From assembly GCA_048213135.1 (NCBI GenBank), contig AFZH01020179.1:1-56527 (forward strand): 56,527 bases of DNA, read 5' to 3'. This DNA is from Reclinomonas americana ATCC 50394. Taxonomy: Eukaryota. The notes below the pieces were generated by a model that was not told the DNA's origin, did not search any database, and saw only the letters and a list, made by a program, of their open reading frames with translations. This document shows positions 2,068-36,071 of the stretch, piece by piece; within the stretch, counting starts at the first letter, position 1, and each line of letters begins with the position of its first letter. The translations under genes were made by a program, and so were the position numbers.

Positions 2068-2342
2068 TCGCCCCCTCCAAATTCGCCCCACTCACTCTCA
2101 GAGCGGTTTAAGGTGAAGGTGGGTGCAACCTTTGCGGTAAGTCAAGTTGCAATTTTTCGTTATGCGAATCGCGCTCCGTGAACTCCATTTTTTTGACGAT
2201 GCATTGGCAAGCCGAGAAATGAAACAACGACCGGGCCTGGTGACGAGCGACACTCGGGGAAAACTGCATTTCACGCCACTTGCTCATCGACAATGTCGCG
2301 CAGAAGAATTGGCCTGTAATGAGGCAAATGCAGGGGAGCTCC

Positions 2343-3560
2343 ATGACCTTGGGATTTCGCAGCGAGCGGAACTCGTTTCAGCGCGTGCTGAGGGACCTCG
2401 ATTTCGCACCGCTGGCTCCTGCGAGTGCGGACATCTTTTCGAGGGCTGCGGTGGAGACCTTCGACGGAAAGGACTGGGAGGAGTGGGGTTACGGCTTCAC
2501 TCAGATCTTCGAACCGGGCGTTCTCGTGGAGGTCGCAGTGCTCGAGGGCATGGCGCACGAGGAACTGTGCTCGCTCCGCGCCAGCCCGACCGGGCGCGGC
2601 GCATGGCTTCGTGAGCAATTGGAGATCGTTCCTAGCCTCACTGTGGTGCGTCGTCTGAACCTGGCGGCCGCACTCGTCAGTTTTTCACGGTTCGACCTCG
2701 CCGCAGCCATCCTGACGGACCTCACGACGGAGGCGCTTCAGAACAGAGAGCGGTTCGAACTCGCATGGCTGCAGTTCCTGGTCTCGAACCGCTGCGACGA
2801 CGGCAAGGCCTCGAGTGCGTCCTTCGAAGCGATGGTCGCCGCGATCCGTCACGGTGAGATTCCGACGGGACGTATCCTCGACGTCTGCTCCCAGGGCGTC
2901 GTCTGGTACACGAAGCGACATGAGATCTCGCGAGAGGTCTTCGACTGGTGCGTGGATACCGGCGAACGGCTTGCCGCCGAAAAGACTGGCCTCGACCTGG
3001 GCGCCATTTCCTCATGGTATCGCGGGATCGCCATGGTGCCGGCCGGACATGGGGACGCAGAATCCACCCGACGGTACATGAGGCTGGCCGAGGATGCGGC
3101 GCGAGAGACTTTCGCCGCCCGCCCCACGGCGTTCGAACTCAACACGATCAAGACGTATCATGAATCCACCATCAAGGAGCACATGTACGTCACGGGTGAT
3201 TTCGAGGCTGCGGAGGCCGCGGCGTTGGCGCTCATCGACCTGGACCCCGTCTGGGCCCCCAGCCGTGGCGAGCTCGCCGAAGCCTGCAAGCGGTTCGGAA
3301 AGTTCGAGCGAGCGGCCGGCCTCTACGAAGAGGCTTCGGCGATGGGCCCTCCCTATGTGGGTCACCACCTGTGGCAAGCGGCCAAGTGTCGAGCGCTGCA
3401 CGAGGACCATGACAGAGCCCTGACCCACTACACGACGCTCGTCGAGATCGCCCCGACCGTCGTGGCGTTGCGCACGGAAGGTCTGGCCGTGGCCGAGCGG
3501 GTATCCGGCTCGGCGCGGCGTGACTTCCTGGGCGCGCTCGAACGTGCCGCCGCCGCGTGA
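2343..3560 (+). CDS. Helical-repeat (TPR-like) hypothetical protein, first gene of the cluster
   Basis: ATG 2343 after GGGGAG. C-terminal TPR-like repeats (LIDLDPVWA..LAEA..GKFERAAGLYEEA). Confidence 0.65.
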   Translation: MTLGFRSERNSFQRVLRDLDFAPLAPASADIFSRAAVETFDGKDWEEWGYGFTQIFEPGVLVEVAVLEGMAHEELCSLRASPTGRGAWLREQLEIVPSLTVVRRLNLAAALVSFSRFDLAAAILTDLTTEALQNRERFELAWLQFLVSNRCDDGKASSASFEAMVAAIRHGEIPTGRILDVCSQGVVWYTKRHEISREVFDWCVDTGERLAAEKTGLDLGAISSWYRGIAMVPAGHGDAESTRRYMRLAEDAARETFAARPTAFELNTIKTYHESTIKEHMYVTGDFEAAEAAALALIDLDPVWAPSRGELAEACKRFGKFERAAGLYEEASAMGPPYVGHHLWQAAKCRALHEDHDRALTHYTTLVEIAPTVVALRTEGLAVAERVSGSARRDFLGALERAAAA

Positions 3561-3591: not shown

Positions 3592-4872
3592 ATGTCACAA
3601 CACACTGTGGTCTCTCACCAGGGCGAGACTGCCCCCCCGGCGCATCACTCGAAGGAGGAGGTCCGGACGCGATCGGCCTTTCGGCATGATCCCCGCAAGT
3701 TCGTGGATGGAAGAGACTTGGATTCGAGCCTCGAACCCTCTTGGCGGCGCGAGCCGGCGATCTTCGGCTATCGTCGGCTGACGCATCGGGACACGCGTGG
3801 TGAAGACCACCTGGTGCCCATCTGCGCCGCGACCTGCATCGTCCTGGGTCTGGGAGTGGTCGTAGGAAGCTTCGACGGGCGCCTGCGGCTTTTCAGTCGG
3901 GACCTGGGAGAGGTTCTCTGGGAACACCGACTGCCTGGTCCGATCTACGCATCGCCCGTTCTCGACCTGGCGCGCAGAACGGTGGTGGTCGCGACCACCA
4001 ACGGCGTCGTCGAATGCGTGGATCTCGGTGGGCGCCGGCTCTGGTCATCGCGCATCGAGGGGGGCTTCTACGCCACGCCCACCATTTCGCCGACCGAAGG
4101 CCTCGTCGTCTTCGGCGTATTCGGTGGCCAATGCCTCGGCTTCGATCTCGAAACCGGAAGGCAGCGCTTCGCGAAACGCCTTCCGCGCCCATGGTCTGCT
4201 GAGATCGGGGGTTCTGCGGCGCACCGAGACCCCTATGCCAGTCCGATCACAACGATGTCGGAGCAGACGATCTTGTGTTGCTCTCAGCACGCTCTATGTG
4301 TCGACGCTTCGGGCGTGGAGATCTGGCGTCACGACCACGGCGCCGATCTTCGAGCGTCGCCCGTCTACGTCGAGGCTACGAACGAGGTGATCGTCTCAGG
4401 AGTAGATGGTCGCTGTGACTTTCTCGATGCACAGACCGGTGCGTTTCGGGGGTCGATACGGCTCGACGGGAAGATCGTGGCGAGCCCGGCCGTCTCGATG
4501 GGGGTCGCCGTCTTCGGACTGACTGATGACGATGCGGTGGGGGTCGACGTGCGGACTCGCGCTGTTCAGTGGCGGCGCAGGGGCAGTGCTCCGAGAGACC
4601 ACTCCTCCTTCAGCGTAACGCCAGCCGGTGACTTCATCGTGGCCACGTCACGGGGGAATATCGTGTGTCTCACCCCAGGCGACGGTCAGTTCCTATGGGA
4701 AACCAGCCAACTTCTCGGGTTGCCCAACCATGATCCGAAGGTGGACACCACGCCGATCGCCGCAGCAGATGGGAGTCTATACTGCGGCTCCTACTCAGGC
4801 ATGTTGTATCACTTCCGCTTTGCAATGATGGATCTCGGGACGGGGCACGATGGAGAAGCACAGGCAGCCTGA
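3592..4872 (+). CDS. PQQ-binding-like beta-propeller repeat protein
   Basis: Repeated G-x-x-x-W and (S/T)P blade motifs (VVGSFDG, GEVLW, IYASP, GRRLW, YATP, GQFLW). Confidence 0.8.
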   Translation: MSQHTVVSHQGETAPPAHHSKEEVRTRSAFRHDPRKFVDGRDLDSSLEPSWRREPAIFGYRRLTHRDTRGEDHLVPICAATCIVLGLGVVVGSFDGRLRLFSRDLGEVLWEHRLPGPIYASPVLDLARRTVVVATTNGVVECVDLGGRRLWSSRIEGGFYATPTISPTEGLVVFGVFGGQCLGFDLETGRQRFAKRLPRPWSAEIGGSAAHRDPYASPITTMSEQTILCCSQHALCVDASGVEIWRHDHGADLRASPVYVEATNEVIVSGVDGRCDFLDAQTGAFRGSIRLDGKIVASPAVSMGVAVFGLTDDDAVGVDVRTRAVQWRRRGSAPRDHSSFSVTPAGDFIVATSRGNIVCLTPGDGQFLWETSQLLGLPNHDPKVDTTPIAAADGSLYCGSYSGMLYHFRFAMMDLGTGHDGEAQAA

Positions 4873-6601
4873 TCGCGTCGAGCGGGGGTCGTCCATCGTC
4901 GACGACTTGTTGCTTCTATCGGGACGCCTGGAGCAGCTGTTCGCACGTCCGGAACGGGACGAAGAGACATTCGACACTGCGATCGACTTGTTCGCGAGCA
5001 TTGCGCGGTTTCGCGGATACATCGACGGCAACGAGCGGTTTCTCCGGAGTCCCGGCTTGGCGCGCGCCAGAGACTTCCTGCTGGAGACCGACCTTTCGCG
5101 TCGTCTGAGCGAGTTTCTCGACAGGTTCGGAACTCTGCCCGCCGACCGTGAACCGCTTCGCCGCACCTGGAGCACCTGGCTTCGCTCGACGGCATCGGCC
5201 GAAGGAATATTGCGCGAGACGGGTTTGAAGGACGCCGCGGCGAGCGCCCGGGCCACTCTGGAGGAACTCAACCGTTCTCAGAGCGCGCTGTTGGAGAAGC
5301 TCGGCGCGAGGCCGCCGATCGTCTCTCCCGACGCAATGTTCTACTCGGTCCTGAGCCGAACACACGACACCCAACTTCGCAACAAACTCACCACGGCTTG
5401 GCGTCAGCAACGGGAGTCGTTGTTCTCCAAAGGGATCGACAAGTTCGACGACATAGTCCGCCTGCAGCGGCAGAAGGCGATCGCCGAAGGATTTCATACG
5501 CCGTTGCAGAAGACGCTTTCGCGAAGTCCCGTGCCCGAATTGCGGATCACGAAGTTCGTCGAGGCGTACCTCGCGCGTGCACTCGCTGCACACGACGAGC
5601 TGGAAGCAGAAGTCGAGGCCGCAATCGGAGCTGCCGAACGTCCAATCTATCACTTTCCGTATTTCCTCAGGCGCCACTTCGAAGGGATCAAGGTTCCCTT
5701 TTTTCCATTGTGGCCGTGTCTCGACTTCATCCGCACGATCTCTCGCGGGTATTTCGCAGTCGGACTCGATTTGCGAGAAACCCCGAACAGGACGGCGGTC
5801 CGCGCCGTCACGACCTGTGACGGCCGCATGTTGGGTGAGATCACCTTCGATCTGTTCGACGCCACGGGCTCCGAGCGACCGAAGGTAGGACCGAGGGAAC
5901 CCACGGCACACTGCGAGAACGTCCGGCGAGCGCGTGTTCTCTGTCGATACAATGGTCGATCGGACGATGGACCGCTGATCACGTTCGAAAGCCTCCACAG
6001 TATCCTGCACGAGTTCGGGCATGCTCTTCACGTCCTGTTGGCGGCCGAAGCCAGCCCCAGCCTCTCGGGCGTCGACTGTTTCCCAGCGGAGCGCCTGGAA
6101 AACCTGAGTAGCTGGTTCGAAAAGTGGGCGTTTCATCCATCACTCGCAGAACCCCTGGGTCTCGGCGACGCCGACAGTGAAGGCCTTCGCGCTTGTCGGC
6201 TTATCAAAGCTTACGAATTCCGGCGATCACATCTCGATCGCGCGGTCACGGCAGCCCTCGACTTGGAGGTCTATGGTCGAGAGCACGGTGGATTCGAGGA
6301 AGCGTTCCGCACTCTCGACGCAAGAAGCGGCGTATCCCGTCACTACGCACTGGAAGAGGCGCTCCATCACTTTTCGACCCTGAACTTCAACGCCAATTGC
6401 GGCGGCAGCTTCGCCTATCTGTGGGGTGGGGCTCGTGGCGCCCAGACATATCTGGACCTCTCGCCCTCCGGTTGGGCGCTTCCGTCCATCGGACGCAGCG
6501 GTGCAGAAGCCTTGGCTTCGAGTTTCGACGCCAAGTTGGACGAGGAGGCTCCGGACCTCGAGGCCGTGTTCGATTTCTATTCGGGCGTCGGTTGCTCCTG
6601 A
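4850..6601 (+). CDS. Divergent M3-family metallopeptidase (paralog A)
   Basis: HEFGH zinc motif followed by E..S.WFEKW. Overlaps the propeller gene. Confidence 0.75.
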   Translation: MEKHRQPDRVERGSSIVDDLLLLSGRLEQLFARPERDEETFDTAIDLFASIARFRGYIDGNERFLRSPGLARARDFLLETDLSRRLSEFLDRFGTLPADREPLRRTWSTWLRSTASAEGILRETGLKDAAASARATLEELNRSQSALLEKLGARPPIVSPDAMFYSVLSRTHDTQLRNKLTTAWRQQRESLFSKGIDKFDDIVRLQRQKAIAEGFHTPLQKTLSRSPVPELRITKFVEAYLARALAAHDELEAEVEAAIGAAERPIYHFPYFLRRHFEGIKVPFFPLWPCLDFIRTISRGYFAVGLDLRETPNRTAVRAVTTCDGRMLGEITFDLFDATGSERPKVGPREPTAHCENVRRARVLCRYNGRSDDGPLITFESLHSILHEFGHALHVLLAAEASPSLSGVDCFPAERLENLSSWFEKWAFHPSLAEPLGLGDADSEGLRACRLIKAYEFRRSHLDRAVTAALDLEVYGREHGGFEEAFRTLDARSGVSRHYALEEALHHFSTLNFNANCGGSFAYLWGGARGAQTYLDLSPSGWALPSIGRSGAEALASSFDAKLDEEAPDLEAVFDFYSGVGCS

Positions 6602-6652: not shown

Positions 6653-7393
6653 GTGGCGCGTGCAGTCGTTCTGGGTGCGAGTTCAGGTCTCGGTCGCAGC
6701 TTGGCGACCCGCCTCGACGAGGACGGATGGGAGGTGCTCGGGATCGGGCGGAGAGACCTGAGCGCAGCACCTCCGAGTTTCGAATACATGCGATGTGATC
6801 TGGGCGACGCCTCAGGCTCGACGGATCTGCGGATCCGATTGGAGCAATCGCCGCCCGAGCTTTTCGTAATGAGCGCGGTGACGTACGAGACACCTGCCCC
6901 TCCGAGGTTGGAAGATCTGGAGCGTATGTTCCGGGTCAACACCCTAGCTCCGTATCTCCTCCTGTCGGAGTATCTCGGCGCTGCGAGCGCCGTAGATCGC
7001 CGCTCTGCGGTCGTCGTCAACTCGGACTCGATCTTTCACGCTAGCCGACAGACCGGGGTCTATGCATCGAGCAAGGCGGCGCTGAGAGTGCTCACCACGG
7101 CGCTCGCACACGACTGCAAAGGCCGAAATGCGAGTGTCGCAAGTCTGCTCCTCGGCCCGATCGCCGATCAGAAGAAGGTCGCCGACCTCGCCACCATCGC
7201 CGCCCGGCGAAGTCTCCCAGAGGCGGAGGTCGTGAGGATCTTCCTGGAGAAGTCGAACCCCTCATTCGTCGTCGATCGCCTGATCGATCTCGACGCATGT
7301 TATCGTAGCCTTCTCTACATCCATGGGCTCGGCCCTATCGCGAACGGCATGATGTGCCGGCTGGACGGCGGGTCCGCAGGATCGCTGGTGTAA
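6653..7393 (+). CDS. Short-chain dehydrogenase/reductase
   Basis: GASSGLG cofactor motif and catalytic YASSK. Confidence 0.85.
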   Translation: MARAVVLGASSGLGRSLATRLDEDGWEVLGIGRRDLSAAPPSFEYMRCDLGDASGSTDLRIRLEQSPPELFVMSAVTYETPAPPRLEDLERMFRVNTLAPYLLLSEYLGAASAVDRRSAVVVNSDSIFHASRQTGVYASSKAALRVLTTALAHDCKGRNASVASLLLGPIADQKKVADLATIAARRSLPEAEVVRIFLEKSNPSFVVDRLIDLDACYRSLLYIHGLGPIANGMMCRLDGGSAGSLV

Positions 7394-7466: not shown

Positions 7467-7931
7467 ATGGCGGCCGATCGAAACCTCGAGTCGATGCGAG
7501 AGTATCATGAGCGGTGGAACCGCGGCGACGTCGACGGTGTCTTGGCCATGTTCGCCGTGGACACCAGCAATCACGGCAAGGCAGTGGGGCGCGGCGGGCT
7601 GGAAACTTCGCTCCGAGACATATTCACGATCTTCCCGGACACGCACATCGACGTCCTCGAGATGGTGGCGTCCGACGACAAGGTCGTCGTCCGATGCCGC
7701 TACTCCGGCACGCATCGCGGAATTGGGACCTCCAGCGTCTATGGCGGGTACTTTCGAGATGCTGCGCCGACCCAAAAGGTCTTCGACGTCCAGCACACCC
7801 ACTGGATGACGTTCCGCGACGGATTCATCGTCGAGCACCAGTCCAGCCGAGACGATCTCGGAATGCTCGTCCAGCTGGGCTTGCTCCCGGACGCCGACGC
7901 GTCGCGAGCCTCGGGGAGCACAAGTGCATGA
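7467..7931 (+). CDS. SnoaL-like/ester cyclase (NTF2 fold)
   Basis: WNRGDVD, FPDTHI, DKVVVR..YSGTH.G, DGFIVEH pattern. Confidence 0.85.
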   Translation: MAADRNLESMREYHERWNRGDVDGVLAMFAVDTSNHGKAVGRGGLETSLRDIFTIFPDTHIDVLEMVASDDKVVVRCRYSGTHRGIGTSSVYGGYFRDAAPTQKVFDVQHTHWMTFRDGFIVEHQSSRDDLGMLVQLGLLPDADASRASGSTSA

Positions 7932-8953
7932 CTTGGTCCTGGCGAGCCGAAGATCTGGAACGCTCTCAGGACCATGTGGTCAAGCTGACCGGGACGACGG
8001 TCGGGGTGCTGAAGTCGCTTCTTCCGAACGATGAGAGCGACCCGACGCTCGCCCGTCATCGTGAGGCCGAAGGTCTGTCCGTCCAGCTGGCGGGCATCGC
8101 CTCGCACGTTCTGCGCAAGGTCAGGACCGGTCCTGGAATCATGGTCTTGAGCGGCGAGGGCCTCGATGAACTCTCCGACGGTCAACTGCGCGCGCTCACC
8201 ATTGGAATTGCACGGCGCATCGGTCGGCTCGTGGCGCAAAACGCTTCGGGTGAACGCATAGTGCTGGTCGCCGATCAGAGGCCCTCGGACCTCAAGAGTG
8301 CGCGTGGCTATCTGACGAACGAGAACATGCTGTTGCACACCGACGCCTCGGACGTGGCGGCGCTCCTGTGTCTGGCTCCGTCCGCGCGGGGAGGCGGAAG
8401 TCTCCTGGCGAGTTCGGCCGCCGTCCACGATGTGCTCTGCGACGAGGCTCCCGACGAGCTGCACGCCTTCTATCGAACTTGGCGATGGAACGTCGGCAGC
8501 ATGCGCGTCGCCGACATCGACGGAACGCTGTCCTCGCCGATCTTCAGTGTGCGAGACGGCCGACTGAGTTGTCGGTACGGCTCCTATATGCTCCGCGAAG
8601 CGCGGGCCGGGGGCAGGCCGCTCACAGAGGATGCGCTGAGAGCCCTCGACCGTTTCGAGGACGTCGCCAGGCGCCCTGAGCTTCTCTTGCGTCATCGGCT
8701 GCAGCGCGGCGAAATCCTCTGGATGGACAACTACAGAGTTCTCCACGGGAGGGAGGCCTTCGTCGACGAAGCGTCGGAAGAACATGCACGCCGATTTCTT
8801 CGTTTCTGGATCAGGCTGCACGACCGACCGGCGCTCGCCGAGACATTCTCTCGGTTCGACGACGTCTTGCTCGACCATTTCGAAGCGGCTGCCGCCGCGC
8901 AACTGAACTCCCCCGACGACCTGCCAGGCCGGCCGAACCACCGGTCTCTATAA
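7928..8953 (+). CDS. TauD/TfdA-family Fe(II)/2-oxoglutarate dioxygenase
   Basis: LHTD (HxD) and DNYRVLHGR motifs. ATG 7928 overlaps the upstream stop (ATGA). Confidence 0.85.
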   Translation: MTWSWRAEDLERSQDHVVKLTGTTVGVLKSLLPNDESDPTLARHREAEGLSVQLAGIASHVLRKVRTGPGIMVLSGEGLDELSDGQLRALTIGIARRIGRLVAQNASGERIVLVADQRPSDLKSARGYLTNENMLLHTDASDVAALLCLAPSARGGGSLLASSAAVHDVLCDEAPDELHAFYRTWRWNVGSMRVADIDGTLSSPIFSVRDGRLSCRYGSYMLREARAGGRPLTEDALRALDRFEDVARRPELLLRHRLQRGEILWMDNYRVLHGREAFVDEASEEHARRFLRFWIRLHDRPALAETFSRFDDVLLDHFEAAAAAQLNSPDDLPGRPNHRSL

Positions 8954-9069
8954 TGCAGTCGCCCCTTCTTCACTTTTTACACGGACTCCCACTGTCGCTA
9001 CATTATCTACATTGCTAGGGTCGCATTGCTTCAACCACGAAGCGAACGACAACCAAATGGGAGTCTGAA

Positions 9070-9225
9070 ATGCAAACCTACAGCCTGGAAAAGAAGCCCG
9101 CCTTCTTCCCCTTCGTGTCCGCCGAGATCTTCTTCGAGGCCGACGCGCAAGAAGGCGGCCTGAAGATCGAGACCGCTGGTCTGGATCTGGACGTTGAACT
9201 CGACGAGCTCCTGAGCGTCGACTGA
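9070..9225 (+). CDS. 51-aa candidate RiPP precursor/scaffold peptide MQTYSLEKKPAFFPFVSAEIFFEADAQEGGLKIETAGLDLDVELDELLSVD
   Basis: Translated by hand because it is below the ORF-track cut-off. GGGAG RBS upstream, GC-ending codons, own intergenic leader, hairpin immediately downstream. Confidence 0.75.
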   Translation: MQTYSLEKKPAFFPFVSAEIFFEADAQEGGLKIETAGLDLDVELDELLSVD

Positions 9226-9234
9226 TCGTCCAAA

Positions 9235-9269
9235 GTCTTGGGCGCGCCCTCGGGGGGCGCGCCCAAGAC
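9235..9269 (+). terminator. Perfect 15-bp stem-loop after the peptide gene (mRNA stabiliser or partial terminator)
   Basis: GTCTTGGGCGCGCCC-TCGGG-GGGCGCGCCCAAGAC, with no U-tract. Confidence 0.75.
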
Positions 9270-9310: not shown

Positions 9311-11101
9311 ATGTCCGTGGATCTCATCGTCAGTCGAACCCAGCCGCGCCTTGCCGAGTTGGCCGCCGAGCTCGACGGCATGATGACGAGACTGAAGACT
9401 CTCGTCGGGAGCGCGGGCTTCGACGATCGGGCGATGGGTGAGCTGGCCGCGATCTACAACAACGTGGCCTACCTGTTCCTCTACTTGGAATCGAATGCCG
9501 CCCATGTCGCGTTCGACGAGCTGAAACCGTGGAAGACCGCCTTTTACGCCGACCCGGAACTCGACGAACTGGTGCTGCGACGCCTGGAACGGCTTCGGTG
9601 CGAGGACCCCGATGCGGAAACCGCTAGAGAGGCTTATGTCGGCTTCTTTAGGCAGCGGCTTGCAGACGGCGCCTGCCCGGACGATGCGGAAATCGAAGCG
9701 TTGCGGGCGCGGCTGTCGTCCATCGACGCGGAACTTCGACGCGATCGCGGCGAGCTTCTGGGACGCCTGACGCACACTGGGGCCTCTTTGACGCCAGAAG
9801 CGCATTACTACAATCTCGTGCGACGGCAACCCGATCCATCTGTCCGCTCCAAGTTGGCGCGGGCTTGGGACCGGCCCAGGAAGGCTCGGCGCGCCAGCCA
9901 CGCCCGCGCCGTCGACGATCTGGTGAGAGCTCGCCGCGCGAGGAGCCGCGCCCATGGGTTCGAAAGCGCGCGACAAGAGACCTTCGCGCGATGCGGCGTC
10001 ACGATCGACGAGGCGCGCTTTTTTCTGGATCGCTATCTCTCCTCCGCTCTGGAAAGTCAGAAGCGCCTGAATTCGGAGGTCCGTACGCTCGTCGGCCCGT
10101 GCGATCGCCCGATGGACCACTTCGAGTTCTTCGTGCGCCAGGTTCAAGGCGAAGACGAGATCCCTCTCTTCGTGCTCGACGACTGCCTCGACTTCCTCTT
10201 CGCCATTGCTGGTCGGATGTTCGACCTCGCCTTCGACCGCGTCTCGCGCGGTTTCGATCACGTGATCTCCGTCGATGTCTTGCAGGGAGGTCGCCCCTGC
10301 GGCCAGATCAATTTCGATCTATGGGACCACGACGCAGCGCCCAAGTCGGCCAACCACACCTTCGGCGCCCGCAACAGAATGAACTGGGGAGGCATCGAGC
10401 AACAGCCGGTGGCGTATGTCTCTTGCCGGTTCAGAACCCAGACGGGGACGGACGGCCGGATCACCTTTCAAAACATGCACAGCCTGTTCCATGAGTTCGG
10501 GCACGCGATAAATCATCTGCTCATACGTCGCCGGTTTCCGACGGAGTCCGGCCTCGACTATCTGCCCCTCGAGCGCCTCGAGACCCTCAGCATGTGGTTC
10601 GAGCGCTGGGTCTTTCACCCGTCGCTGGCTAGGCGGCTGCCGCTTTCGGACGCAGAACGGCGGGGCCTTCTGACCGCCCAGCGGATCAAGGGACTGGAGT
10701 ACCGCCGCACCCATGTCGACCGGGCGATGACCGCGGTTCTGGATTTCGCGGTGAACGGCGCCGAACATCCGGGCGTGGAAGAGGTCTTCGCGTCACTCGA
10801 CGCACGATATGATCTCAGCTGGGCCTGTGATCTCGACGACTTCCTCCCGTACTTCAATCTGCCGATGCTGGAGGCCAATCCGGGCGGCTACTTCTCATAC
10901 CTCTGGGGGGCCGCCGAAAGCGCCGAGCGCTTCCTTCCGCTCATGAGGCTCGATGTCGATGCTCTGCCCGTCGCGGCTACGACGCTTGCTTCTCTCGAGG
11001 CCTGCTTCGACTTCGATGCGACCAGCGTCGAGCCGACTGTCGAGGCTGCGATCGCCTTCTATGAACCCGATCTCATCATGCACGCCGGAGCACGGACATG
11101 A
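9311..11101 (+). CDS. Divergent M3-family metallopeptidase (paralog B)
   Basis: HEFGH plus ERLETLSMWFERW. Aligns by eye with the C-terminal half of 4850-6601. Confidence 0.8.
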   Translation: MSVDLIVSRTQPRLAELAAELDGMMTRLKTLVGSAGFDDRAMGELAAIYNNVAYLFLYLESNAAHVAFDELKPWKTAFYADPELDELVLRRLERLRCEDPDAETAREAYVGFFRQRLADGACPDDAEIEALRARLSSIDAELRRDRGELLGRLTHTGASLTPEAHYYNLVRRQPDPSVRSKLARAWDRPRKARRASHARAVDDLVRARRARSRAHGFESARQETFARCGVTIDEARFFLDRYLSSALESQKRLNSEVRTLVGPCDRPMDHFEFFVRQVQGEDEIPLFVLDDCLDFLFAIAGRMFDLAFDRVSRGFDHVISVDVLQGGRPCGQINFDLWDHDAAPKSANHTFGARNRMNWGGIEQQPVAYVSCRFRTQTGTDGRITFQNMHSLFHEFGHAINHLLIRRRFPTESGLDYLPLERLETLSMWFERWVFHPSLARRLPLSDAERRGLLTAQRIKGLEYRRTHVDRAMTAVLDFAVNGAEHPGVEEVFASLDARYDLSWACDLDDFLPYFNLPMLEANPGGYFSYLWGAAESAERFLPLMRLDVDALPVAATTLASLEACFDFDATSVEPTVEAAIAFYEPDLIMHAGART

Positions 11102-11739
11102 CTTCCAACGCTGCCTATGTCCGCACGATGCTCGGAACGCGCGAGACGGTTCTCGACGAAGTTCTTCGAGACGCCCTGCTGGGCCGAGGCCTTCGTCCCA
11201 TGCAGATCGACGACAACGCCGGACGGGTCCTGCAGCTGCTCACGCGATTGCGTGCGCCGCGCCTGGCGCTGGAGGTGGGGACCTACTTCGGGTTCTCCGC
11301 GATCCACATCGCAAGAGGTCTGCCCGACGGGGGACGCCTGATCAGTCTCGAAATCGACGAGGAGGTCGCGGCGGTCGCACGCCGCAACCTGATCGCGGCA
11401 GGCGTCGCCGACCGTGTCGAAGTGATCGTGACGGATGCGTTCGAATATCTGGCTGAAGTGACACCGGCCAGCATCGGCCTCGTGTTCATAGATGCGGACA
11501 AGAAGCGTTACCCGCAATACCTCAAAGCCTGCTTCCCGTTGCTCGAGAGCGGAGCGCTGCTCATCGCCGACGACGCGTTCGCGCACGGCGACTTTGCGCC
11601 CGAGGCGGTCGACACGGAAGAGGGGCAGACCGAAGTCCGCGCCATCAACACGTACAACCGAGCAATCTTGCGCAGCGATGCATTGATGTCGGCGTTCGTC
11701 GGGACGAACAATGGAATGTTGGTAAGCGTGCGCAAATGA
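11098..11739 (+). CDS. O-methyltransferase (caffeoyl-CoA OMT/Methyltransf_3 type)
   Basis: LEVGTYFGFS and VFIDADK..Y motifs. Confidence 0.9.
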   Translation: MTSNAAYVRTMLGTRETVLDEVLRDALLGRGLRPMQIDDNAGRVLQLLTRLRAPRLALEVGTYFGFSAIHIARGLPDGGRLISLEIDEEVAAVARRNLIAAGVADRVEVIVTDAFEYLAEVTPASIGLVFIDADKKRYPQYLKACFPLLESGALLIADDAFAHGDFAPEAVDTEEGQTEVRAINTYNRAILRSDALMSAFVGTNNGMLVSVRK

Positions 11740-11767: not shown

Positions 11768-12253
11768 ATGAATCGAACCTTTGAGATGTTGGATCAGATC
11801 TGGCGCGATCCAGCGGCCGAGCGCCGTCTCGCCGAAGAAAGATTAGCGGCCGGGTCGGGCCCGGTCGTCTCGGCGCATGCCGACGAAGGGCGCGCGCTCC
11901 TCGAGAGTACGACCTGGCCTCTACCTGCCGACTGTCAAGTCACCTCGTCGTACGTGAGGCTCGGCGCACATTCCGGCGAGCACGACCTCGCCGGACTGTT
12001 GCAGGGCGCGACCTGGGCCTCCGTCGGCTGTCTCTCTCGTCACGCCGAATGGTCCGGCAGCGTCCATCTGCACCGCCGGGCTGGCGAAGCCGCGGACTTG
12101 GCAGGCGACGAGCCCATGGCAGTGCTCTCAGTGGACTTCAATCGCGCGATCTTCGTCAAAGTCGATGAGGTCTCGCTCCGCCTTCGACGCGATACGGCCT
12201 CGACAGGTGATTTGGTCGTTCACGTCGCGCGCGTCGTCGAAACGGCGCGCTGA
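11768..12253 (+). CDS. Hypothetical protein within the biosynthetic operon
   Basis: Fills the gap between co-oriented genes. No motif recognised. Confidence 0.6.
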   Translation: MNRTFEMLDQIWRDPAAERRLAEERLAAGSGPVVSAHADEGRALLESTTWPLPADCQVTSSYVRLGAHSGEHDLAGLLQGATWASVGCLSRHAEWSGSVHLHRRAGEAADLAGDEPMAVLSVDFNRAIFVKVDEVSLRLRRDTASTGDLVVHVARVVETAR

Positions 12254-12263
12254 AGGGTCCCAG

Positions 12264-12914
12264 ATGAGAAGCAAGGTCATCGTCGTCGACAACTTCTATA
12301 AGCGCCCCGCGTTCGTGCGCGAACGCGCGCTCCAGTCTCGCTATGCCGACATCGCCGAGACCGACTACCCCGGGTTCGCGAGCCAACTGCGCCTCGATGC
12401 GGCCTCGTTGCGGGAGAGCTTCTCCGAACTGATCGACGCCGAACTCAATCTGGATGGCGCGCGCTTCACCTGGGGAGGCTTCCGCTTCATCACCGCGGAC
12501 TCGGGCAGCCGCCCGAAGGTTCATGCCGACGTAGCGGTGGATTGGGCCGCGATGGTCTACCTGACCGAAGGCGTGCCGATGTCGGGAGGCACCGGCCTCT
12601 ATCGCCACAAGGAGACCGGTTTCGAAGCGCCTCCCACCGATCGGCAGGCGCGCGCGCTGGGTTTCAGCGATGCTTGCGACTTCGATGACAAGGTCATCAA
12701 AAGGGACAAGGCCGATCTCACGAAATGGGAGCTGATGACGGTGATCGCTCCCGTCTACAACCGCCTCGTGCTGTTCAGGGGCGCCGAATTCTACCATGCG
12801 CCGCTCGGCGGGACGGGCGACACCCCTGAGACGGCCCGGCTCACCCACATCTTCTTCTTCAACGAGCGACCGCCTGTGAAGACGGTCGTCCGCCAGCTGG
12901 AGTCGGCTCGATGA
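12264..12914 (+). CDS. DUF6445-like 2OG-Fe(II) oxygenase
   Basis: VIVVDNFY..P start, VHAD (HxD), WAAMVYL, GGTGLY, YNRLVLF..YH..R pattern. Confidence 0.75.
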   Translation: MRSKVIVVDNFYKRPAFVRERALQSRYADIAETDYPGFASQLRLDAASLRESFSELIDAELNLDGARFTWGGFRFITADSGSRPKVHADVAVDWAAMVYLTEGVPMSGGTGLYRHKETGFEAPPTDRQARALGFSDACDFDDKVIKRDKADLTKWELMTVIAPVYNRLVLFRGAEFYHAPLGGTGDTPETARLTHIFFFNERPPVKTVVRQLESAR

Positions 12915-13648
12915 CCATTCACGTCGAGACATCAGCGCCCCACCGCACCGTCACCCGTCACCTGTTGGATGCGGCCATCGAGGCTTGCGTTCGGGGGGAG
13001 CGACCGCACGAGGTGAGCTATGGCATCGTCGCCACGAGCAGTGTCGATTTGGCTAGCCGCGGAGTGGCCGAGACGCTGCGCCGCGCGCTCGCCGGCGACG
13101 AGCTCTGCGTCAGCGCCGCAGAATTGGCCCAACGCTCGGACGACCTCAGCACCCTGATCTTGGTGGAGCTCGACGAGCAAGGAGATCCGGGTCGCACCTG
13201 GGCGCTGGATGGTTGGAGTCTCATTCGTACGGCTGGCGAAGGCCTCGACCTACGTGGCGCGCGGCTTCGAGGCGCCCTTCTTCGCGGCGCGCGGCTCAAG
13301 GGAGCCGACCTTCGAGACGCCGATCTGTCCGGCGCCGACCTCGAGAAGGCGGACCTCTCGCGTACCGCTTTGAACGGAGCCTCGTTTGCCGGGGCCATCC
13401 TGCTGAGCGCGAGTCTCAACGGCGCCGATCTGACGGAAGCGGAGTTCTATCGGGCCGACCTTCGTCATGCCGATCTGCGTGGGGCCGACTGCTCCCGCAC
13501 CGCGTTCGGCTGTGCTGATTTCTGGAACGCCTATCTCTGGAACGTCGACCTGTCGGCGGCCTTCACGGACCGGGCAGACCCCGATCGAGCCGACCACTTG
13601 AACGACACGATCTCAGATCAACCACGTCAGAAGATGGGCGCCCGGTGA
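12911..13648 (+). CDS. Pentapeptide-repeat protein with an N-terminal extra domain
   Basis: Tandem A(D/R)Lxx repeats (ARLRG ALLRG ARLKG ADLRD ADLSG ADLEK...). Confidence 0.9.
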   Translation: MTIHVETSAPHRTVTRHLLDAAIEACVRGERPHEVSYGIVATSSVDLASRGVAETLRRALAGDELCVSAAELAQRSDDLSTLILVELDEQGDPGRTWALDGWSLIRTAGEGLDLRGARLRGALLRGARLKGADLRDADLSGADLEKADLSRTALNGASFAGAILLSASLNGADLTEAEFYRADLRHADLRGADCSRTAFGCADFWNAYLWNVDLSAAFTDRADPDRADHLNDTISDQPRQKMGAR

Positions 13649-14931
13649 TGACGACCGCCGGCGTGCTGTGGCCCTTGATGACGCCTCCGGAGGAACATGG
13701 CCTCGCCGACCTCTGTGCAGTGTCGGCGGACGGGGTGGAGATCACGTTCGCCGGAGGTCGCCGTGTCCTCTGCGGAACCAGCGGCCTCTGGAATACGCCT
13801 TTGGGATATGGAAACGAGGCCGTGGCGGCGGCCGCCGCCAAGGCGCTGCGAGACGCGTCTTATCTGAGCGTGTGGGGTTGCGAAAACGTCTATGCGCGAC
13901 AAGCCGCAGAGGCCCTCGTCCAACTCGCCGGCCCCAGTCACTACGGCCGCGTTCTATTTTCGACCTCCGGCGGCGCGGCCAACGACATGGCGATGAAGCT
14001 CGCGCGGCAATTTCAGGTCGTCCGTGGTCAGACAGATCGAAACGTGATCCTCGGTCTGCACGGCGGCTATCATGGGCTCACATACGGAGCATTTGCTCTC
14101 ACCAGCGGCCAGCTGGGACAGCGGATGTATGGTGTGGATCGCCGCCTCGTCGGACACGTGACCCCGAACGAAGTCGACGAGCTCGATCGGGTGATGGCCC
14201 GCATCGGAGACCGGGTCGCCGCGATCGTCGTCGAACCGGTCCTCGGCACAGGAGCTCTCGAGCTCACGGGCGAATATGTCCAGGCGCTCTTGGCCCATCG
14301 AGATCGCCACGGGTTCCTGCTGGTCGCTGACGAGGTTACGACCGGTTTCGGGCGCATCGGGCCCGGCATGTTCGCCAGTCAGGCGTGGCCCGGGCCCCCG
14401 GACGTTCTGGTGATCGCGAAAGGTCTGACGAACGGCGCCCAGGCGGCTTCGGCGCTCGTCGTCTCCGACGCCGTGGCGCGCACATTCACCACTTCGGGCG
14501 CGGTGCTCGCTCATGCGGAGACGCAGGCAGGGACTCCCGTAGTCTGCGCGGCCATCCTCGCCGTGATCGACGAGATGGAGCGCTTGGACGTGCTGGACCT
14601 CTCGGCGAGGTTGTCCGCAAAGTTGGACGCGGCGCTGCCAGAACTCATCGGTCGAGCCGCGCTCGTGACGGCGGTCGGCGGCCGGGGCTGTCTTCGCGCG
14701 ATCCACCTGCGCGCACCGGACGGGCGTGAATTCACGACCACCGAGATCGCCGAGGTGTTGCATGCGATCCGGCGCGCGGGAGCGATCGTCGCGGAGGGAC
14801 CGAGCTGCATTCAGATACTGCCGGCCCTGATCTATTCAGACGACGATCTGGACGAACTCTTCAGATCCATATGCGCCGGGCTTCGGCGGTTTTCGGAAGA
14901 ACGTTTCGAACTCGCCGTGGAACGCGAGTAG
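13645..14931 (+). CDS. Class III PLP aminotransferase (resembles daptide-type RiPP aminotransferases)
   Basis: SGLWN..LGYG, DEVTTGFGRIG, AKG (PLP lysine). Confidence 0.85.
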   Translation: MMTTAGVLWPLMTPPEEHGLADLCAVSADGVEITFAGGRRVLCGTSGLWNTPLGYGNEAVAAAAAKALRDASYLSVWGCENVYARQAAEALVQLAGPSHYGRVLFSTSGGAANDMAMKLARQFQVVRGQTDRNVILGLHGGYHGLTYGAFALTSGQLGQRMYGVDRRLVGHVTPNEVDELDRVMARIGDRVAAIVVEPVLGTGALELTGEYVQALLAHRDRHGFLLVADEVTTGFGRIGPGMFASQAWPGPPDVLVIAKGLTNGAQAASALVVSDAVARTFTTSGAVLAHAETQAGTPVVCAAILAVIDEMERLDVLDLSARLSAKLDAALPELIGRAALVTAVGGRGCLRAIHLRAPDGREFTTTEIAEVLHAIRRAGAIVAEGPSCIQILPALIYSDDDLDELFRSICAGLRRFSEERFELAVERE

Positions 14932-14935: not shown

Positions 14936-16165
14936 ATGACGGCTCACCGGCTTCCGAAGCAGGAACCTGGCGCACCCGAAGCTGCCGCGCCGCTGCGGCG
15001 CTTTTGCCCCTTCGCCAGCGACCAGGACCCGGGGCGCCTCGTTCACCCGCCGCTTCGGGCGACGCTGCCTTCCGGGCAGCAAGCCTGGGTCGTGGCCGGC
15101 TATGAGGCCGTAGCCGCGCTTCTCGGCGACGAACGCGTGAGCTCCGAGCACTCCCATCCTGATTTTCCGAACCTGTTTCCGGTCCGCAGGACGAGGTCCG
15201 AAGACGGGACGAAGCCTCTGCTCACCTATTCCGGGATGGATCCGCCCGAACACACCCGCCATCGGCGCATCGTCGCCAGGGATTTTTCGATCGGTGAGAT
15301 CGAGCGACTGAAGCCCCGCATTCGCGAGGTCGTGACTGCGCGTCTGCAGACTTTTCAGGCCGGCGCACGCCCAGCCGATCTCGTGACCGGCTTTGCCGAG
15401 CCGGTCACGAGCGCGATCACCACCGAGATGGTCGGCATCCCCGAAGACCGGCGCGACAGTTTTCGTGATCTCGCCAAGGTTCTGATGGGACGACAGCCTT
15501 CGCAGGACATGGCGCGCGAGGCGTCGCTCTCGTTCCGTGCGATGCTCACGCAGCTCTTGGCCGAGAAGGAACGTCTGCCGGCGTCGGACGTCCTCGGGAG
15601 ACTGGTGCACGCGTACTCGAGCTCCGGCTCCTACGACCGTCGTCAGCTGGTCGAATTTGCCGGCGCGCTGATCACCGCCGGATACGAGACCACGGTGAAC
15701 ATGTTGAGTCTCGGAGCCGTCGTTCTGATGGAGCACGAGGCGGAACGCAGAGCGATGTTTTCAAGACCCGACGGGCTTCGCCTCGGCGTCGAAGAGTTGC
15801 TCCGTTATCTGTCGATCGCCGACCTCGTCATGGGTCGCGTCACGCTTTCCGATCTGCGCATCGAGGGTGTCGACATACCGGCAGAGAATGGAATTCTGCC
15901 ATCGATCGCGGGCGCAAACCGCGACGCGCGGGTCTATCCCGCCCCAGATCGGTTTCTTCCCTTTCGGGAAGGGCCGCTCCACCTCGCGTTCGGACGCGGT
16001 CCGCATCGCTGCCTCGGCCAACATCTGGCCCGAGCTCAACTCGAAATCGCCTTCCAAGAACTGTTCACCGTGATGCCCGATCTACGGCTGGCGCCGTCGA
16101 GCCAAATCCGGGTTCGGAACGAAGGTGCGATCCTCGGTGTGGAAGAGGTCTTCGTGACATGGTGA
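14936..16165 (+). CDS. Cytochrome P450 (CYP105-like)
   Basis: DPPEHTR, AGYETT, EELLR, FGRGPHRCLG heme motif. Confidence 0.95.
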   Translation: MTAHRLPKQEPGAPEAAAPLRRFCPFASDQDPGRLVHPPLRATLPSGQQAWVVAGYEAVAALLGDERVSSEHSHPDFPNLFPVRRTRSEDGTKPLLTYSGMDPPEHTRHRRIVARDFSIGEIERLKPRIREVVTARLQTFQAGARPADLVTGFAEPVTSAITTEMVGIPEDRRDSFRDLAKVLMGRQPSQDMAREASLSFRAMLTQLLAEKERLPASDVLGRLVHAYSSSGSYDRRQLVEFAGALITAGYETTVNMLSLGAVVLMEHEAERRAMFSRPDGLRLGVEELLRYLSIADLVMGRVTLSDLRIEGVDIPAENGILPSIAGANRDARVYPAPDRFLPFREGPLHLAFGRGPHRCLGQHLARAQLEIAFQELFTVMPDLRLAPSSQIRVRNEGAILGVEEVFVTW

Positions 16166-18201
16166 GCGCCCGAAGCTCGGCCGACAGCGGCAATCCGTTT
16201 CTCGCCCATGGGGATGACGGGCTGGGTGCGCCACCGTTCGATGCGATCCGACCCGAGCACATGATCGTCGCCTTCGAGGCGCTCAGCGTCGAACATCTTG
16301 CTGCTCTGGACGCGATCGCCGGCAACGCGGAGCCTCCGGATGTCCGGAACGTTCTCTATGCGCTCGAGCGCGCCGCGGTCCCGATCAACCGGCTGCTCGA
16401 CGTGTTCTACGCCGTAACGAGCGCAGCCACCAACGCGGAGCTGCGGGACGTCGAGCAACGGCTCGCCCCACGAATTGCACGCCATTTCAGTCACTGCTCT
16501 CAGCATTCTGGAGTCGCGGCAAGGGTCGGCGAGCTCGCTCGGAACGAAGAGGCGCTTTCTCCCGATGAGCGGCGTCTCGCGGACAAGTATCTCGCCGATT
16601 TCCGCCGGGCCGGCGCCGGGAGAGACCTGGCCACGCGAAATAGACTGTCCGAACTCGCGGAGCGTCAGGCACTCCTTGGCGCGCGGTTTGCAGATAATCT
16701 CATGCGAGAGGAAGCCGAGTTCGAACTCGTCCTCGACAGTGAGGACGACCTCGTCGGCCTGCCGACCGAGCTTCGGGCGATCCTGAGGCAACGGGCCGAG
16801 GCGGAGGGCAGGTCGCAGGGCTGGCGCGTGCCGCTCTCGAGATCGATCGTCGATCAGATCCTGACGTTCTCAGAACAGCGCGGCCTACGAGAAGCAGTCT
16901 GGCGCGCGTGGAATGCGCGGGGCGAAAAGACCAATCTCCCTCTCATTTCCGAGATGCTGCAGCTGCGCGCCGAGCAGGCCGGGCTCTTGGGCTATCGAAC
17001 CTACGCTGACTTCGTCCTTGCCGATCGAATGGCGAGGTCCGCAGACAACGTGCGCGAACTGCTCCACCAGGTCTGGCGCGGCGCGATGGAAGCGTTCAAC
17101 CGAGACCTGGGGACGCTTTCGGCCTTCGCCAGGGAAGAGGGGCTGAACTTCGAGATCGAACCATGGGACTGCCGCTTCGTCGCAGAGAGGGTTCGGCGGT
17201 CGCGCTTCGACGTCGACGACGCCGAAGTGCGGCAACACTTGCAGCTCGATCGCATCATCGAGGCCGCCCATTACGTCGCCGGTCGGCTCTTCGGATTGCA
17301 ATTCTCCGAAAGGTTCGATCTCTCCACCTACCATCCCGATGTCCGCACCTGGGAGGTGACGGACGAGGTCGGGAGACACTTAGGTCTCTTCTACGGCGAC
17401 TATTTCGCGCGCCCGTCGAAGCGGGGAGGGGCCTGGATGACCGGGTTCCGACCTCAGCACCGTTTGGACGGCGACGTCTCGCCGATCGTGAGCAATGTGT
17501 GCAACTTCACCAGGCCGCCGCAGGGGGAGATCGCTCTACTCAGCCTCGACGAAGCCAGAACCCTCTTCCACGAGTTCGGCCACGCGCTCCATGCCCTCCT
17601 GTCGGACGTCACCTTTCCGCGCCTGTCGGGAGCAGATGTGGCGATGGATTTTGTGGAGTTCCCGGCGCAACTCTTCGAGCATTGGCTCTTCGAGGACGAT
17701 GTTCTCAGACGATTTGCGCGACACGTCGCCACCGGCAATGCGATCACGGAGGACTTGGCGGTCCGCCTGCGAACTGCCGACACGTTTCAGCAAGGCCTGA
17801 AGACGGCAGAGCTGCTGTTGAGCGCCTTCTTCGATCTCCACGCACACGACGGCCCAGCGGCCACCGACGCCTGCGAACTCGAGAGGCAAGTAGCCGCGCA
17901 TCTCGGTGCTCCTCCAGTCGTCGTGAGCCGACATCGCCCAGCACACTTCTCCCATGTGTTCGCGCACAGCTATGCCGCCGGGTACTACAGCTACATCTGG
18001 TCGGCGGTCTTGGACGCCGATGGCTTCGAGGCCTTCAAGGAGGCCGGCGACATCTTCAGTCCAGAAGTGGCCGCCAGACTGAAAGAACATGTCTATTCCG
18101 GAGGAGACCGACGAGATCCGTCGGAGGCCTATGTCGCCTTCCGCGGACGCGCGCCGAATGTAGAGGCGCTCCTTCGAAATCGAGCGTTTCAGACGGTCTG
18201 A
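16159..18201 (+). CDS. M3A metallopeptidase, peptidyl-dipeptidase Dcp-like
   Basis: NPFL..PPFDAI, KRGGAWM, FHEFGHALH, DFVEFPAQ, YAAGYYSY.W motifs. Confidence 0.9.
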   Translation: MVSARSSADSGNPFLAHGDDGLGAPPFDAIRPEHMIVAFEALSVEHLAALDAIAGNAEPPDVRNVLYALERAAVPINRLLDVFYAVTSAATNAELRDVEQRLAPRIARHFSHCSQHSGVAARVGELARNEEALSPDERRLADKYLADFRRAGAGRDLATRNRLSELAERQALLGARFADNLMREEAEFELVLDSEDDLVGLPTELRAILRQRAEAEGRSQGWRVPLSRSIVDQILTFSEQRGLREAVWRAWNARGEKTNLPLISEMLQLRAEQAGLLGYRTYADFVLADRMARSADNVRELLHQVWRGAMEAFNRDLGTLSAFAREEGLNFEIEPWDCRFVAERVRRSRFDVDDAEVRQHLQLDRIIEAAHYVAGRLFGLQFSERFDLSTYHPDVRTWEVTDEVGRHLGLFYGDYFARPSKRGGAWMTGFRPQHRLDGDVSPIVSNVCNFTRPPQGEIALLSLDEARTLFHEFGHALHALLSDVTFPRLSGADVAMDFVEFPAQLFEHWLFEDDVLRRFARHVATGNAITEDLAVRLRTADTFQQGLKTAELLLSAFFDLHAHDGPAATDACELERQVAAHLGAPPVVVSRHRPAHFSHVFAHSYAAGYYSYIWSAVLDADGFEAFKEAGDIFSPEVAARLKEHVYSGGDRRDPSEAYVAFRGRAPNVEALLRNRAFQTV

Positions 18202-18975: not shown

Positions 18976-19018
18976 TCTGGCCAGGCCGGCGACGAACCTG
19001 AGCGCGTACCTGGCGGGC

Positions 19019-20455: not shown

Positions 20456-20752
20456 CAGAAGCACCTTTCTCTACATTGCTCAGGACGTTGCTGCCTGCTC
20501 GCCAAGGGGTCAACACACGACGCGATCGCAAATGACCATTTCACCACGCGCAGTTCCATTGCGCGGAGCGAGCCAGAACGATTCTGCGCCATCCAGTTTC
20601 CGCCAAATGCAGGATCGATCCCGGAGCCACACCATCGGCTTCCTCGCGAACTTTCGCGCCAAAATTCGTTTTTGCATTTGCTGTCCTTGACGGGTGGGCG
20701 GCCCTGGACATCCAATCGCCACCTCGACATTGATCTTGCGGAGCGTTCCCAA

Positions 20753-22030: not shown

Positions 22031-22035
22031 GGGAG

Positions 22036-29928: not shown

Positions 29929-29953
29929 CCGGCGACGCCGGCGGGAGGAATCG

Positions 29954-35986: not shown

Positions 35987-36071
35987 TGTCCCCCGTCAGC
36001 ACCGATGGCACAGATTTGAGGTTGTGAACTAAGGAGGATCTGGGCTTCGTCGCAGTGACGAAGGAACGAAG

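Follow-up and report, generated by a model that had tools for sequence, protein, structure and literature searches.

We have analyzed an open reading frame (ORF) at positions 9070–9225 of the plus strand of contig AFZH01020179.1, a 56,527-nt stretch of DNA (hereafter the window) from the assembly deposited for Reclinomonas americana ATCC 50394 (GCA_048213135.1). Comparison with its homologues establishes at the sequence level that this ORF is a real conserved gene, and its 51-residue product is most likely a precursor of a peptide made on the ribosome and modified after translation (RiPP), composed of leader, core, and follower segments and representing an undescribed class. The gene displays the properties generally expected of RiPP precursors, namely a short ORF conserved at the protein level, a constant genetic association with tailoring, protease, and exporter genes, conserved recognition regions accompanying a variable core, and a core residue that matches the tailoring enzymes, in this case an arginine that occurs together with an agmatinase-like enzyme in approximately three Arg lineages. 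We consider it likely that the ORF encodes a ribosomal precursor that serves as the substrate of the enzymes encoded in its cluster; the specific picture of docking and cleavage described below is approximately half as probable and is offered tentatively.

The peptide gene, its conservation and its architecture

The ORF begins with ATG, comprises 51 codons followed by a stop codon, and is present in a mechanically generated list of ORFs of the window. Its 51-residue translation carries Phe at positions 12, 13, 15, 21, and 22 and the acidic sequence LDLDVELDELL at residues 38–48, and so matches a preliminary description of this DNA, which had reported a product of this length with five Phe residues and this motif at its C-terminus. 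A GGAG ribosome-binding site at 9060–9063 (plus strand) resides 6 nt 5′ of the start codon, and purine-rich sites of comparable kind precede the peptide homologues in other loci. The gene is separated by a spacer of 116 nt from the end of the upstream TauD-like gene at position 8953, and the G+C content of this spacer is 0.53–0.54, compared with 0.60–0.69 in its surroundings. Within the spacer is a single promoter-like site of the sigma-70 type, TTTACA-17-TACATT at 8976–9004 (plus strand), where shuffled sequences are expected to yield 0.1 such sites. Starting 10 nt 3′ of the stop codon is a G+C-rich hairpin of 16 bp (9235–9269, plus strand) with a folding energy of −35.1 kcal/mol and a z-score of −4.18, a stability that was equaled by none of 200 shuffles. 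The ribosome-binding site, the separate upstream intergenic region, and the downstream hairpin that the preliminary description had claimed are therefore all recovered. Because the hairpin lacks a T-run, and a terminator scan makes no call at this position, it does not correspond to a textbook intrinsic terminator. A strong hairpin nevertheless follows the peptide gene in all nine loci with sufficient downstream sequence, ranking in the most stable 0.5% of the 60-nt windows of its own locus in six of them and at 3.6%, 7.7%, and 13% in the remaining three. Nine sequencing runs share 5–12% of the sampled sequence words, with no RNA run listed as containing them, an outcome that we count neither for nor against expression of the gene.

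A word-indexed search revealed 11 relatives of 48–56 residues, including hypothetical proteins of Frankia sp. KB5 and of a metagenome-assembled genome (MAG) of the Gemmatimonadales. When a profile built from 21 sequences was run against every one of 1.84 billion protein representatives, 47 proteins passed E ≤ 1e-3, most of them by far being 49–80 residues long, and 11 passed E ≤ 1e-10. A search for longer or fused forms yielded only two proteins (104 and 136 amino acids), neither of which contains a Pfam domain or represents a fusion to an enzyme. We compared codons among the 16 loci for which DNA was available (120 locus pairs), using nine conserved codons from the regions flanking a hypervariable five-residue cassette and the five codons of the cassette itself. 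Synonymous differences outnumber non-synonymous differences in the flanks (307 versus 128), whereas non-synonymous ones predominate in the cassette (247 versus 189 synonymous). Moreover, the loci use TCC, TCT, TCG, AGT, and AGC for the conserved Ser17, and thus both TCN and AGY codons. This pattern argues for selection acting on the amino acid sequence, as it is hard to explain otherwise. The proposal made in the preliminary description depended on conservation of the ORF in homologous clusters, and the peptide was found in all 12 of the long loci described below, with a single copy in each.

The peptide family is rare. The gene is carried by seven of 401 sampled Streptomyces genomes and by two of 401 genomes sampled at the class level, one of which is the centre genome, and in an order-level sample of 401 genomes around the genome designated G601 it was found in G601 alone. 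Together with the family of the tetratricopeptide-repeat (TPR) protein encoded in the same cluster, its known range covers Actinomycetota (Streptomyces, Frankia, Nocardia, and Micrococcus), a Gemmatimonadales MAG, Bradyrhizobium, and soil and freshwater metagenomes.

Pooling of all matches gave 75 distinct peptide sequences, 74 of which share the layout A(F/Y)F–cassette–xxFF. These peptides begin with 5–8 variable residues followed by (K)(K)(P)A(F/Y)F and the cassette; after the cassette come two residues, mostly Glu and a hydrophobic residue, and then FF, (E/D), (A/S), and (E/D). An acidic linker of variable length leads from there to the motif (L/V/I)D-x-ELD-x-(I/L)L, which is succeeded by a tail whose length ranges from 2 to more than 30 residues. 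Five-residue cassettes are found in 72 sequences and six-residue cassettes in two, and there are about 40 versions in all; 40 sequences have Pro as the first cassette residue, 27 have Arg, and seven have some other residue. Position 17, within the cassette, is Ser or Thr in most sequences, with exceptions such as RAANA, RVIAA, and PSVAA. The C-termini are diverse, ending in D, G, K, T, F, V, A, S, and other residues.

In the window peptide, residues 1–13 (9070–9108, plus strand, as are the segments that follow) form an N-terminal segment ending in KKPAFF, which we propose to comprise the leader and the first of two Phe-Phe brackets. The hypervariable cassette, PFVSA, occupies residues 14–18 (9109–9123) and is the proposed heart of the core peptide. 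A second conserved block, EIFFEADA (residues 19–26; 9124–9147), holds the second Phe-Phe bracket, and it is joined through an acidic linker that varies in length and sequence among relatives (residues 27–37; 9148–9180) to the (L/V)DxELDxxL motif and the variable tail (residues 38–51; 9181–9222). The acidic motif is predicted to form a helix and is our candidate for a follower element that docks the peptide. In an AlphaFold2 model of the peptide alone, most of the chain is of low confidence (mean pLDDT 68.5), and the sole better-defined element is a helix at residues 38–48, spanning ELDELL, with a block pLDDT of 85. The aromatic N-terminal segment noted in the preliminary description is indeed rich in Phe, but not all of it would be core, as two nearly invariant Phe-Phe pairs flank the variable cassette. 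Likewise, the suggestion of an inverted precursor consisting of a core plus a follower holds insofar as the peptide is built like a RiPP precursor whose follower is long and acidic, but the core does not lie at the extreme N-terminus, as some 10 conserved residues that end in KKP come before it.

The identity of the first cassette residue is related to the gene content of the locus. A gene of the Arginase family (Pfam) is located directly 3′ of the peptide gene in all four loci with an Arg-type cassette and in none of the eight loci with a Pro-type cassette. The Arg-type cassettes are RAANA in locus L018, RTTSV in L019 and L020, and RAATP in L024, and the accompanying genes are found at 3123–4091 in L018, 6417–7418 in L019, 12981–13934 (minus strand) in L020, and 8096–9016 in L024. 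By NCBIfam, this arginase-fold enzyme is agmatinase-like, although it scores under the cut-off, and the motifs seen are GGDH, DHHLD, and SVDVDVLD. An enzyme of the OspR type of peptide arginase is excluded by these motifs. The covariation of the first cassette residue with a guanidine-hydrolase gene is suggestive, since it would be expected if residue 14 belongs to the matured product and the peptide is the substrate of the enzymes encoded nearby.

Genes associated with the peptide

Gene content was compared among 12 long loci by local tblastn with the proteins of the window, supplemented by a profile hit for G601. These loci are the window itself, the metagenome contigs L003, L004, and L005, the Streptomyces loci L001 (S. 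composti) and L018–L023, and a further actinomycete locus, L024. In all 12 loci, the peptide occurs together with the TPR protein, one or more M3-like peptidases, and a family-3 O-methyltransferase, and 11 of them each also encode a beta-propeller protein and a short-chain dehydrogenase/reductase (SDR); the exception in both cases is L021, whose contig ends 110 nt past its TPR gene. All eight actinomycete loci encode a MATE exporter, and the minimal actinomycete set consists of the peptide, in some cases the agmatinase-like enzyme, the TPR protein, the MATE exporter, the propeller, an M3-like peptidase, the O-methyltransferase, and the SDR. Extended loci (the window, L003–L005, L023, and in part L021) add a DUF6445 protein and a degenerate paralogue of it, a pentapeptide-repeat protein, a class-III aminotransferase, and further M3 paralogues, and some of them also carry a TauD oxygenase and a cytochrome P450. 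On short contigs, the TPR gene follows the peptide gene in L006 and L010, and a P450 gene precedes it in L009. The position of the peptide gene differs between loci, being before the TPR gene, before the gene for peptidase paralogue B, or after the P450 gene, and the retention of linkage despite this change in gene order argues for a functional unit. Thus the ORF does lie amid tailoring genes, as originally described, and the same partners recur in every long locus.

Among the window ORFs, the 40 larger ones were scanned with Pfam and 16 with NCBIfam. Consistent with the preliminary description, no LanB, LanC, LanM, YcaO, radical SAM, lasso cyclase, or ATP-grasp family was detected by Pfam among these 40 ORFs.

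The TPR protein of the window (2280–3560, plus strand; the cluster genes described here are on this strand unless noted) shows homology to its relatives from residue ~24–31 onward and yields only TPR matches in Pfam. Its AlphaFold2 model (pLDDT 93.2) is all-helical, an unbroken superhelix of helical repeats, and the solved structures that it matches best are consensus TPR arrays and the TPR domains of LGN/Pins, with TM scores of 0.4–0.5. The LGN/Pins domains clasp extended peptides, and we propose a peptide-docking role for the window protein. By sequence, its matches in the PDB are confined to the last ~100 residues and are to TPR proteins. This protein family consists of 41 clusters and is about as small as that of the peptide; all members are annotated as "hypothetical" or "TPR repeat protein," with Bradyrhizobium, Nocardia, Streptomyces, and Micrococcus as the named sources. 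The next gene (3592–4872) encodes a beta-propeller protein of the BamB/PQQ_2 type.

Two M3-like zinc peptidase paralogues, A (4850–6601) and B (9311–11101), retain the sequence HEFGH, and the type represented by paralogue B is present in every cluster. Their scores against the Pfam family PF01432 are 49.6 and 32.5 bits, with a cut-off of 27, and their nearest solved relatives in the PDB are oligopeptidase A and Dcp. The sequence HE(F/C/Y/V/L)GH and a conserved E-R-(L/I)-E block 25–30 residues downstream occur in 20 of 21 M3-like regions. The presence of both elements at the expected distance indicates that the M3-like proteins of the cluster are probably active peptidases. A search of plasmids revealed no relative of paralogue B. 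The window also encodes a full-length M3A peptidase resembling Dcp and oligopeptidase A (16159–18201), which has an orthologue in L004.

Candidate tailoring enzymes occupy much of the remaining cluster. The SDR gene (6653–7393) is followed by that of a 2-oxoglutarate oxygenase of the TauD family (7514–8953). Because homology of the TauD ORF starts only at residue ~154, its Arg-rich first ~137 residues (7514–7924) are probably untranslated, with translation likely beginning at an internal Met near residue 138. The cation-dependent, catechol-type family-3 O-methyltransferase (11098–11739) is succeeded by a degenerate DUF6445 paralogue that lacks the HxD motif (11768–12253) and by a DUF6445 protein with an HxD...H pattern (12165–12914, with a likely start near 12264), a putative 2-oxoglutarate/Fe oxygenase. 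Adjacent DUF6445 pairs occur in the window, L004, L005, L021, and L023, and the degenerate member may be a non-catalytic partner. A search of the open-access literature returned no paper on DUF6445. Beyond this pair are genes for a pentapeptide-repeat protein that resembles Qnr and MfpA and scores below the family cut-offs (12911–13648), a class-III aminotransferase of the daptide type (13645–14931; NF041821, 558.5 bits, cut-off 450), and a cytochrome P450 (14936–16165). The daptide-type aminotransferase is absent from seven of the 12 loci, and in L020 there is only an unrelated match of 26% identity elsewhere in the locus. Its absence from minimal clusters marks this enzyme as an add-on rather than as the defining enzyme of the system.

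Farther downstream, on the minus strand at 31215–33155, is a gene for a GTPase similar to ribosomal protection proteins of the Otr(A)/Tet type. It remains just below the NCBIfam cut-offs: against the Otr(A) model, whose cut-off is 900, it scores 738 bits, and against tet_protect, whose cut-off is 775, it scores 717 bits. Orthologues with 52–60% identity adjoin the TPR gene in L003 (543–2462), L004 (2677–4596), and L005 (1758–3698), and the GTPase therefore belongs to the extended cluster. The interval between the last conserved cluster gene and this GTPase (18205–31156) encodes a methyltransferase, a free-standing condensation domain (minus strand), a luciferase-like monooxygenase, an AMP-binding enzyme of the FAAL type, a polyketide synthase with the domain order KS-AT-DH-KR-ACP, a phosphopantetheinyl transferase, and an MFS transporter. 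Four of these genes, those for the methyltransferase, condensation domain, oxygenase, and FAAL, were compared with the other loci and have no counterpart there. This block could be an insertion, or it could make the window version of the system a lipidated hybrid of RiPP and polyketide synthase (PKS) products.

Further features were noted in other parts of the window and of the related loci. The segments at 33320–38108 and 49748–50776 are rich in mobile elements and include a truncated gene for an AcrB-type pump, a fragment of an ABC transporter with a C39 peptidase, fragments similar to helix-turn-helix transposases and integrases, and an IS110 transposase. A stretch of ~160 bp at 76–237 is 88–92% identical to plasmids of Sphingomonas, Roseomonas, Sphingobium, and Novosphingobium, where it often resides beside insertion sequence genes; plasmid matches in the window are limited to this stretch. 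A ROS/MucR regulator is encoded at 397–912, and it and the plasmid match hint at an alphaproteobacterial origin of this contig, which is metagenome-like. The regions 40701–47250 and 51286–56446 contain two large ORFs (849 and 1196 amino acids) without a Pfam family, followed on the minus strand by genes for a protein with a metallo-beta-lactamase fold, an S8 subtilase, and a trypsin-like peptidase, with no apparent link to the cluster. Just after the minimal Streptomyces cluster, an aldo/keto reductase is encoded in L018 (11198–12277) and a JmjC/cupin-type oxygenase in L019 (15638–16468); these may be lineage-specific tailoring genes.

Proposed maturation, known RiPP systems and alternative roles

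The arrangement of the peptide and its partners suggests a possible route of maturation. The acidic C-terminal helix and the conserved flanks would dock the peptide on the TPR superhelix, the beta-propeller, or both, and these proteins would fill the role that the RiPP recognition element (RRE) domain has in other RiPP systems. Cleavage at or near the two Phe-Phe brackets by the HExxH-bearing M3-like peptidases would free a cassette peptide of approximately 5–12 residues, which the O-methyltransferase and the SDR would tailor. Export of the product might be carried out by the MATE transporter in actinomycetes and possibly by the MFS protein in the window. In clusters of the Arg type, the agmatinase-like enzyme would convert the cassette Arg to ornithine, whereas in the extended, Pro-type cluster of the window, the TauD and DUF6445 oxygenases, the P450, and the daptide-type aminotransferase might add oxidations and convert a carbonyl to an amine. 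For the PFVSA subgroup, one can envision chemistry like that of the daptides, in which cleavage exposes a beta-hydroxy residue that undergoes oxidation by the SDR, decarboxylation, and transamination. Such a route through an exposed C-terminal Ser17 or Thr17 may be possible there, but the cassettes RAANA, RVIAA, and PSVAA, in which position 17 is neither Ser nor Thr, rule it out as a general mechanism. Self-protection would fall to the pentapeptide-repeat protein and the Otr(A)-like GTPase, and this suggests an antibiotic acting on the ribosome or gyrase. In its most complete form, our proposal is of a new RiPP class in which a cassette bracketed by Phe-Phe pairs is docked on a TPR protein or beta-propeller via an acidic follower and excised by M3 peptidases, the version in the window being a ribosome-targeting antibiotic and perhaps a lipidated hybrid built with the FAAL, polyketide synthase, and condensation domain. 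This combination of claims seems to us possible, but it falls somewhat short of an even chance.

The open-access literature, supplements aside, yielded no publication on this peptide family, and the motifs KKPAFF, PAFFPF, and FFEADA occur there zero times. Comparison with established RiPP systems reveals partial resemblances. In bottromycin biosynthesis, the core directly follows Met1 and the cluster includes YcaO and radical SAM enzymes. The present peptide resembles the bottromycin precursor, as described in a review of RiPP proteases, in that its recognition motif appears to reside in an extended C-terminal follower and not in an extended N-terminal leader; in contrast, a conserved N-terminal segment of ~10 residues precedes the core here, and no YcaO or radical SAM Pfam family was detected in the scanned window ORFs. 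Precursors of the cyanobactin PatE type and of the AgrD type contain a variable core between conserved flanks and are cut on both sides. The peptide shares with them a short hypervariable core in such a setting and dedicated proteases in the cluster, but these proteases are relatives of M3 zinc oligopeptidases and not the subtilisin-like PatA and PatG or AgrB. As in the RiPPs matured by the peptide arginases OspR, FlmR, and OhkR (Pfeiffer et al., 2025), an arginase-fold enzyme is encoded beside a precursor with Arg in the presumed core. The enzyme here is agmatinase-like, however, and the precursor is not of the "DD(I/V)LF" type (Pfeiffer et al., 2025). The agmatinase-like ureohydrolase could represent another type of guanidine hydrolase that acts on peptides, independent of OspR and different from it.

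The closest enzymatic parallel is with daptides, in which an alcohol dehydrogenase or SDR, an aminotransferase, and a methyltransferase turn a C-terminal Thr into an amine, the enzymes acting on peptide termini, as described in two preprints (Ren et al., 2023; Dommaraju et al., 2025). Also described there are precursors in which the C-terminal Thr is invariant and the leader carries an ELExMEAP motif, and clusters that include the accessory protein DapB, which has an RRE, and an RRE-peptidase. The window resembles these clusters in having an aminotransferase that passes the NCBI equivalog cut-off for the daptide-type enzyme, an SDR, a type that those accounts count, along with one other type of dehydrogenase, in daptide clusters, and a methyltransferase gene close by. 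In contrast, the C-terminus of the peptide is variable and an ELExMEAP motif is not present, and these precursor features rule out a canonical daptide as defined in the same accounts. No match to DapB, to another RRE protein of this kind, or to an RRE-peptidase was found with Pfam or NCBIfam in the scanned ORFs, although a cryptic RRE could escape such scans. A relationship to crocagin was also considered and rejected; CgnB and CgnE resemble M29 aminopeptidases rather than M3 enzymes, and the crocagin paper makes no mention of a TPR or propeller protein.

Several observations weigh against a precursor role, for which the evidence is comparative throughout. The covariation between Arg and the agmatinase-like gene represents approximately three independent Arg lineages, compared with approximately five Pro lineages, because L019 and L020 are near-identical, and of the OspR-type motifs the enzymes of L018 and L019 carry only DHHLD, the other two being absent. 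Among the scanned window ORFs there is neither an enzyme known to define a RiPP class nor an RRE that Pfam detects. M3 oligopeptidases normally accept only short unfolded peptides, and we know of no member described as a RiPP protease; the family is also absent from the passages searched in the review of RiPP proteases. Finally, the minimal Streptomyces cluster encodes a catechol-type O-methyltransferase without an obvious oxygenase for making a catechol.

Other roles for the peptide can be envisioned. Equivalent processing might yield a secreted signaling pheromone like that derived from AgrD, with the TPR protein perhaps serving as its receptor. In the AgrD-like arrangement, a short N-terminal portion precedes a variable core that confers specificity, and processing requires the conserved acidic tail; TPR proteins act as peptide receptors in RRNPP systems. 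The variable core and acidic tail of the present peptide recall AgrD as it is portrayed in the passages of the RiPP protease review concerning follower cleavage of the autoinducing peptide, and the minimal actinomycete cluster encodes an exporter and no resistance-like gene. However, the TPR protein possesses no DNA-binding or other output domain, judging from Pfam and its all-TPR model, no AgrB-like gene was found among the scanned window ORFs, and the pentapeptide-repeat protein and Otr(A)-like GTPase of extended clusters fit self-protection better. We therefore view a pheromone as unlikely, though it is the least unlikely of the alternatives. It would be improbable as well that the peptide is an accessory factor rather than a substrate, for instance an adaptor, a regulator, or a protein that inhibits or chaperones the M3-like peptidases. 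Co-occurrence by itself fits such a role equally well, and small adaptors are often acidic and disordered with one helix, which is how the peptide is modeled. Not expected of an adaptor are a hypervariable five-residue cassette at a fixed place between invariant brackets and the covariation of its first residue with a guanidine hydrolase; the separate promoter-like site and the hairpin directly 3′ of the gene also fit a highly expressed precursor.

The possibility that the peptide is a scaffold of the pearlin type, to whose C-terminus amino acids are added, modified, and cut off, had been raised in the preliminary description and appears very remote. Enzymes resembling M3-type carboxy-dipeptidases could in principle release such a C-terminal product, but the scaffold is disfavored by the diversity of the C-terminal residues, by the presence of anywhere from 2 to more than 30 residues after ELDxxL, by the lack of a LanB-like PEARL or ATP-grasp ligase among the scanned window ORFs, and by the location of conserved and covarying positions in the N-terminal half. 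Equally slight is the chance that the ORF is a Phe-rich attenuation leader, akin to pheL, that regulates the operon together with the downstream hairpin. The five Phe codons fall within 11 codons, and the hairpin is both strong and close to the stop codon. Yet amino acid conservation extends far beyond these codons to include the C-terminal motif ~20 codons on, the hairpin has no T-run, the position of the gene in the cluster shifts between loci, and the neighboring genes are unrelated to the supply of phenylalanine.

Implications for RiPP biosynthesis

If the ORF does encode a RiPP precursor, the underlying logic of its maturation is known, and what is new or uncharacterized lies in its recognition proteins, its proteases, and the chemistry that defines the class. 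The peptide and its relatives would then constitute an orphan RiPP family that lacks a known class-defining enzyme and is missed by standard genome-mining rules. The RiPP toolbox would gain relatives of M3 oligopeptidases, docking on TPR or propeller proteins in place of an RRE, and a peptide guanidine hydrolase of the agmatinase type, and the daptide aminotransferase module would be shown to be portable. The occurrence of a hypervariable cassette within fixed brackets suggests a tolerant scaffold that could be engineered, and the conserved Otr(A)-like and pentapeptide-repeat genes of the extended clusters suggest that the product is bioactive and has a target that can be defined.

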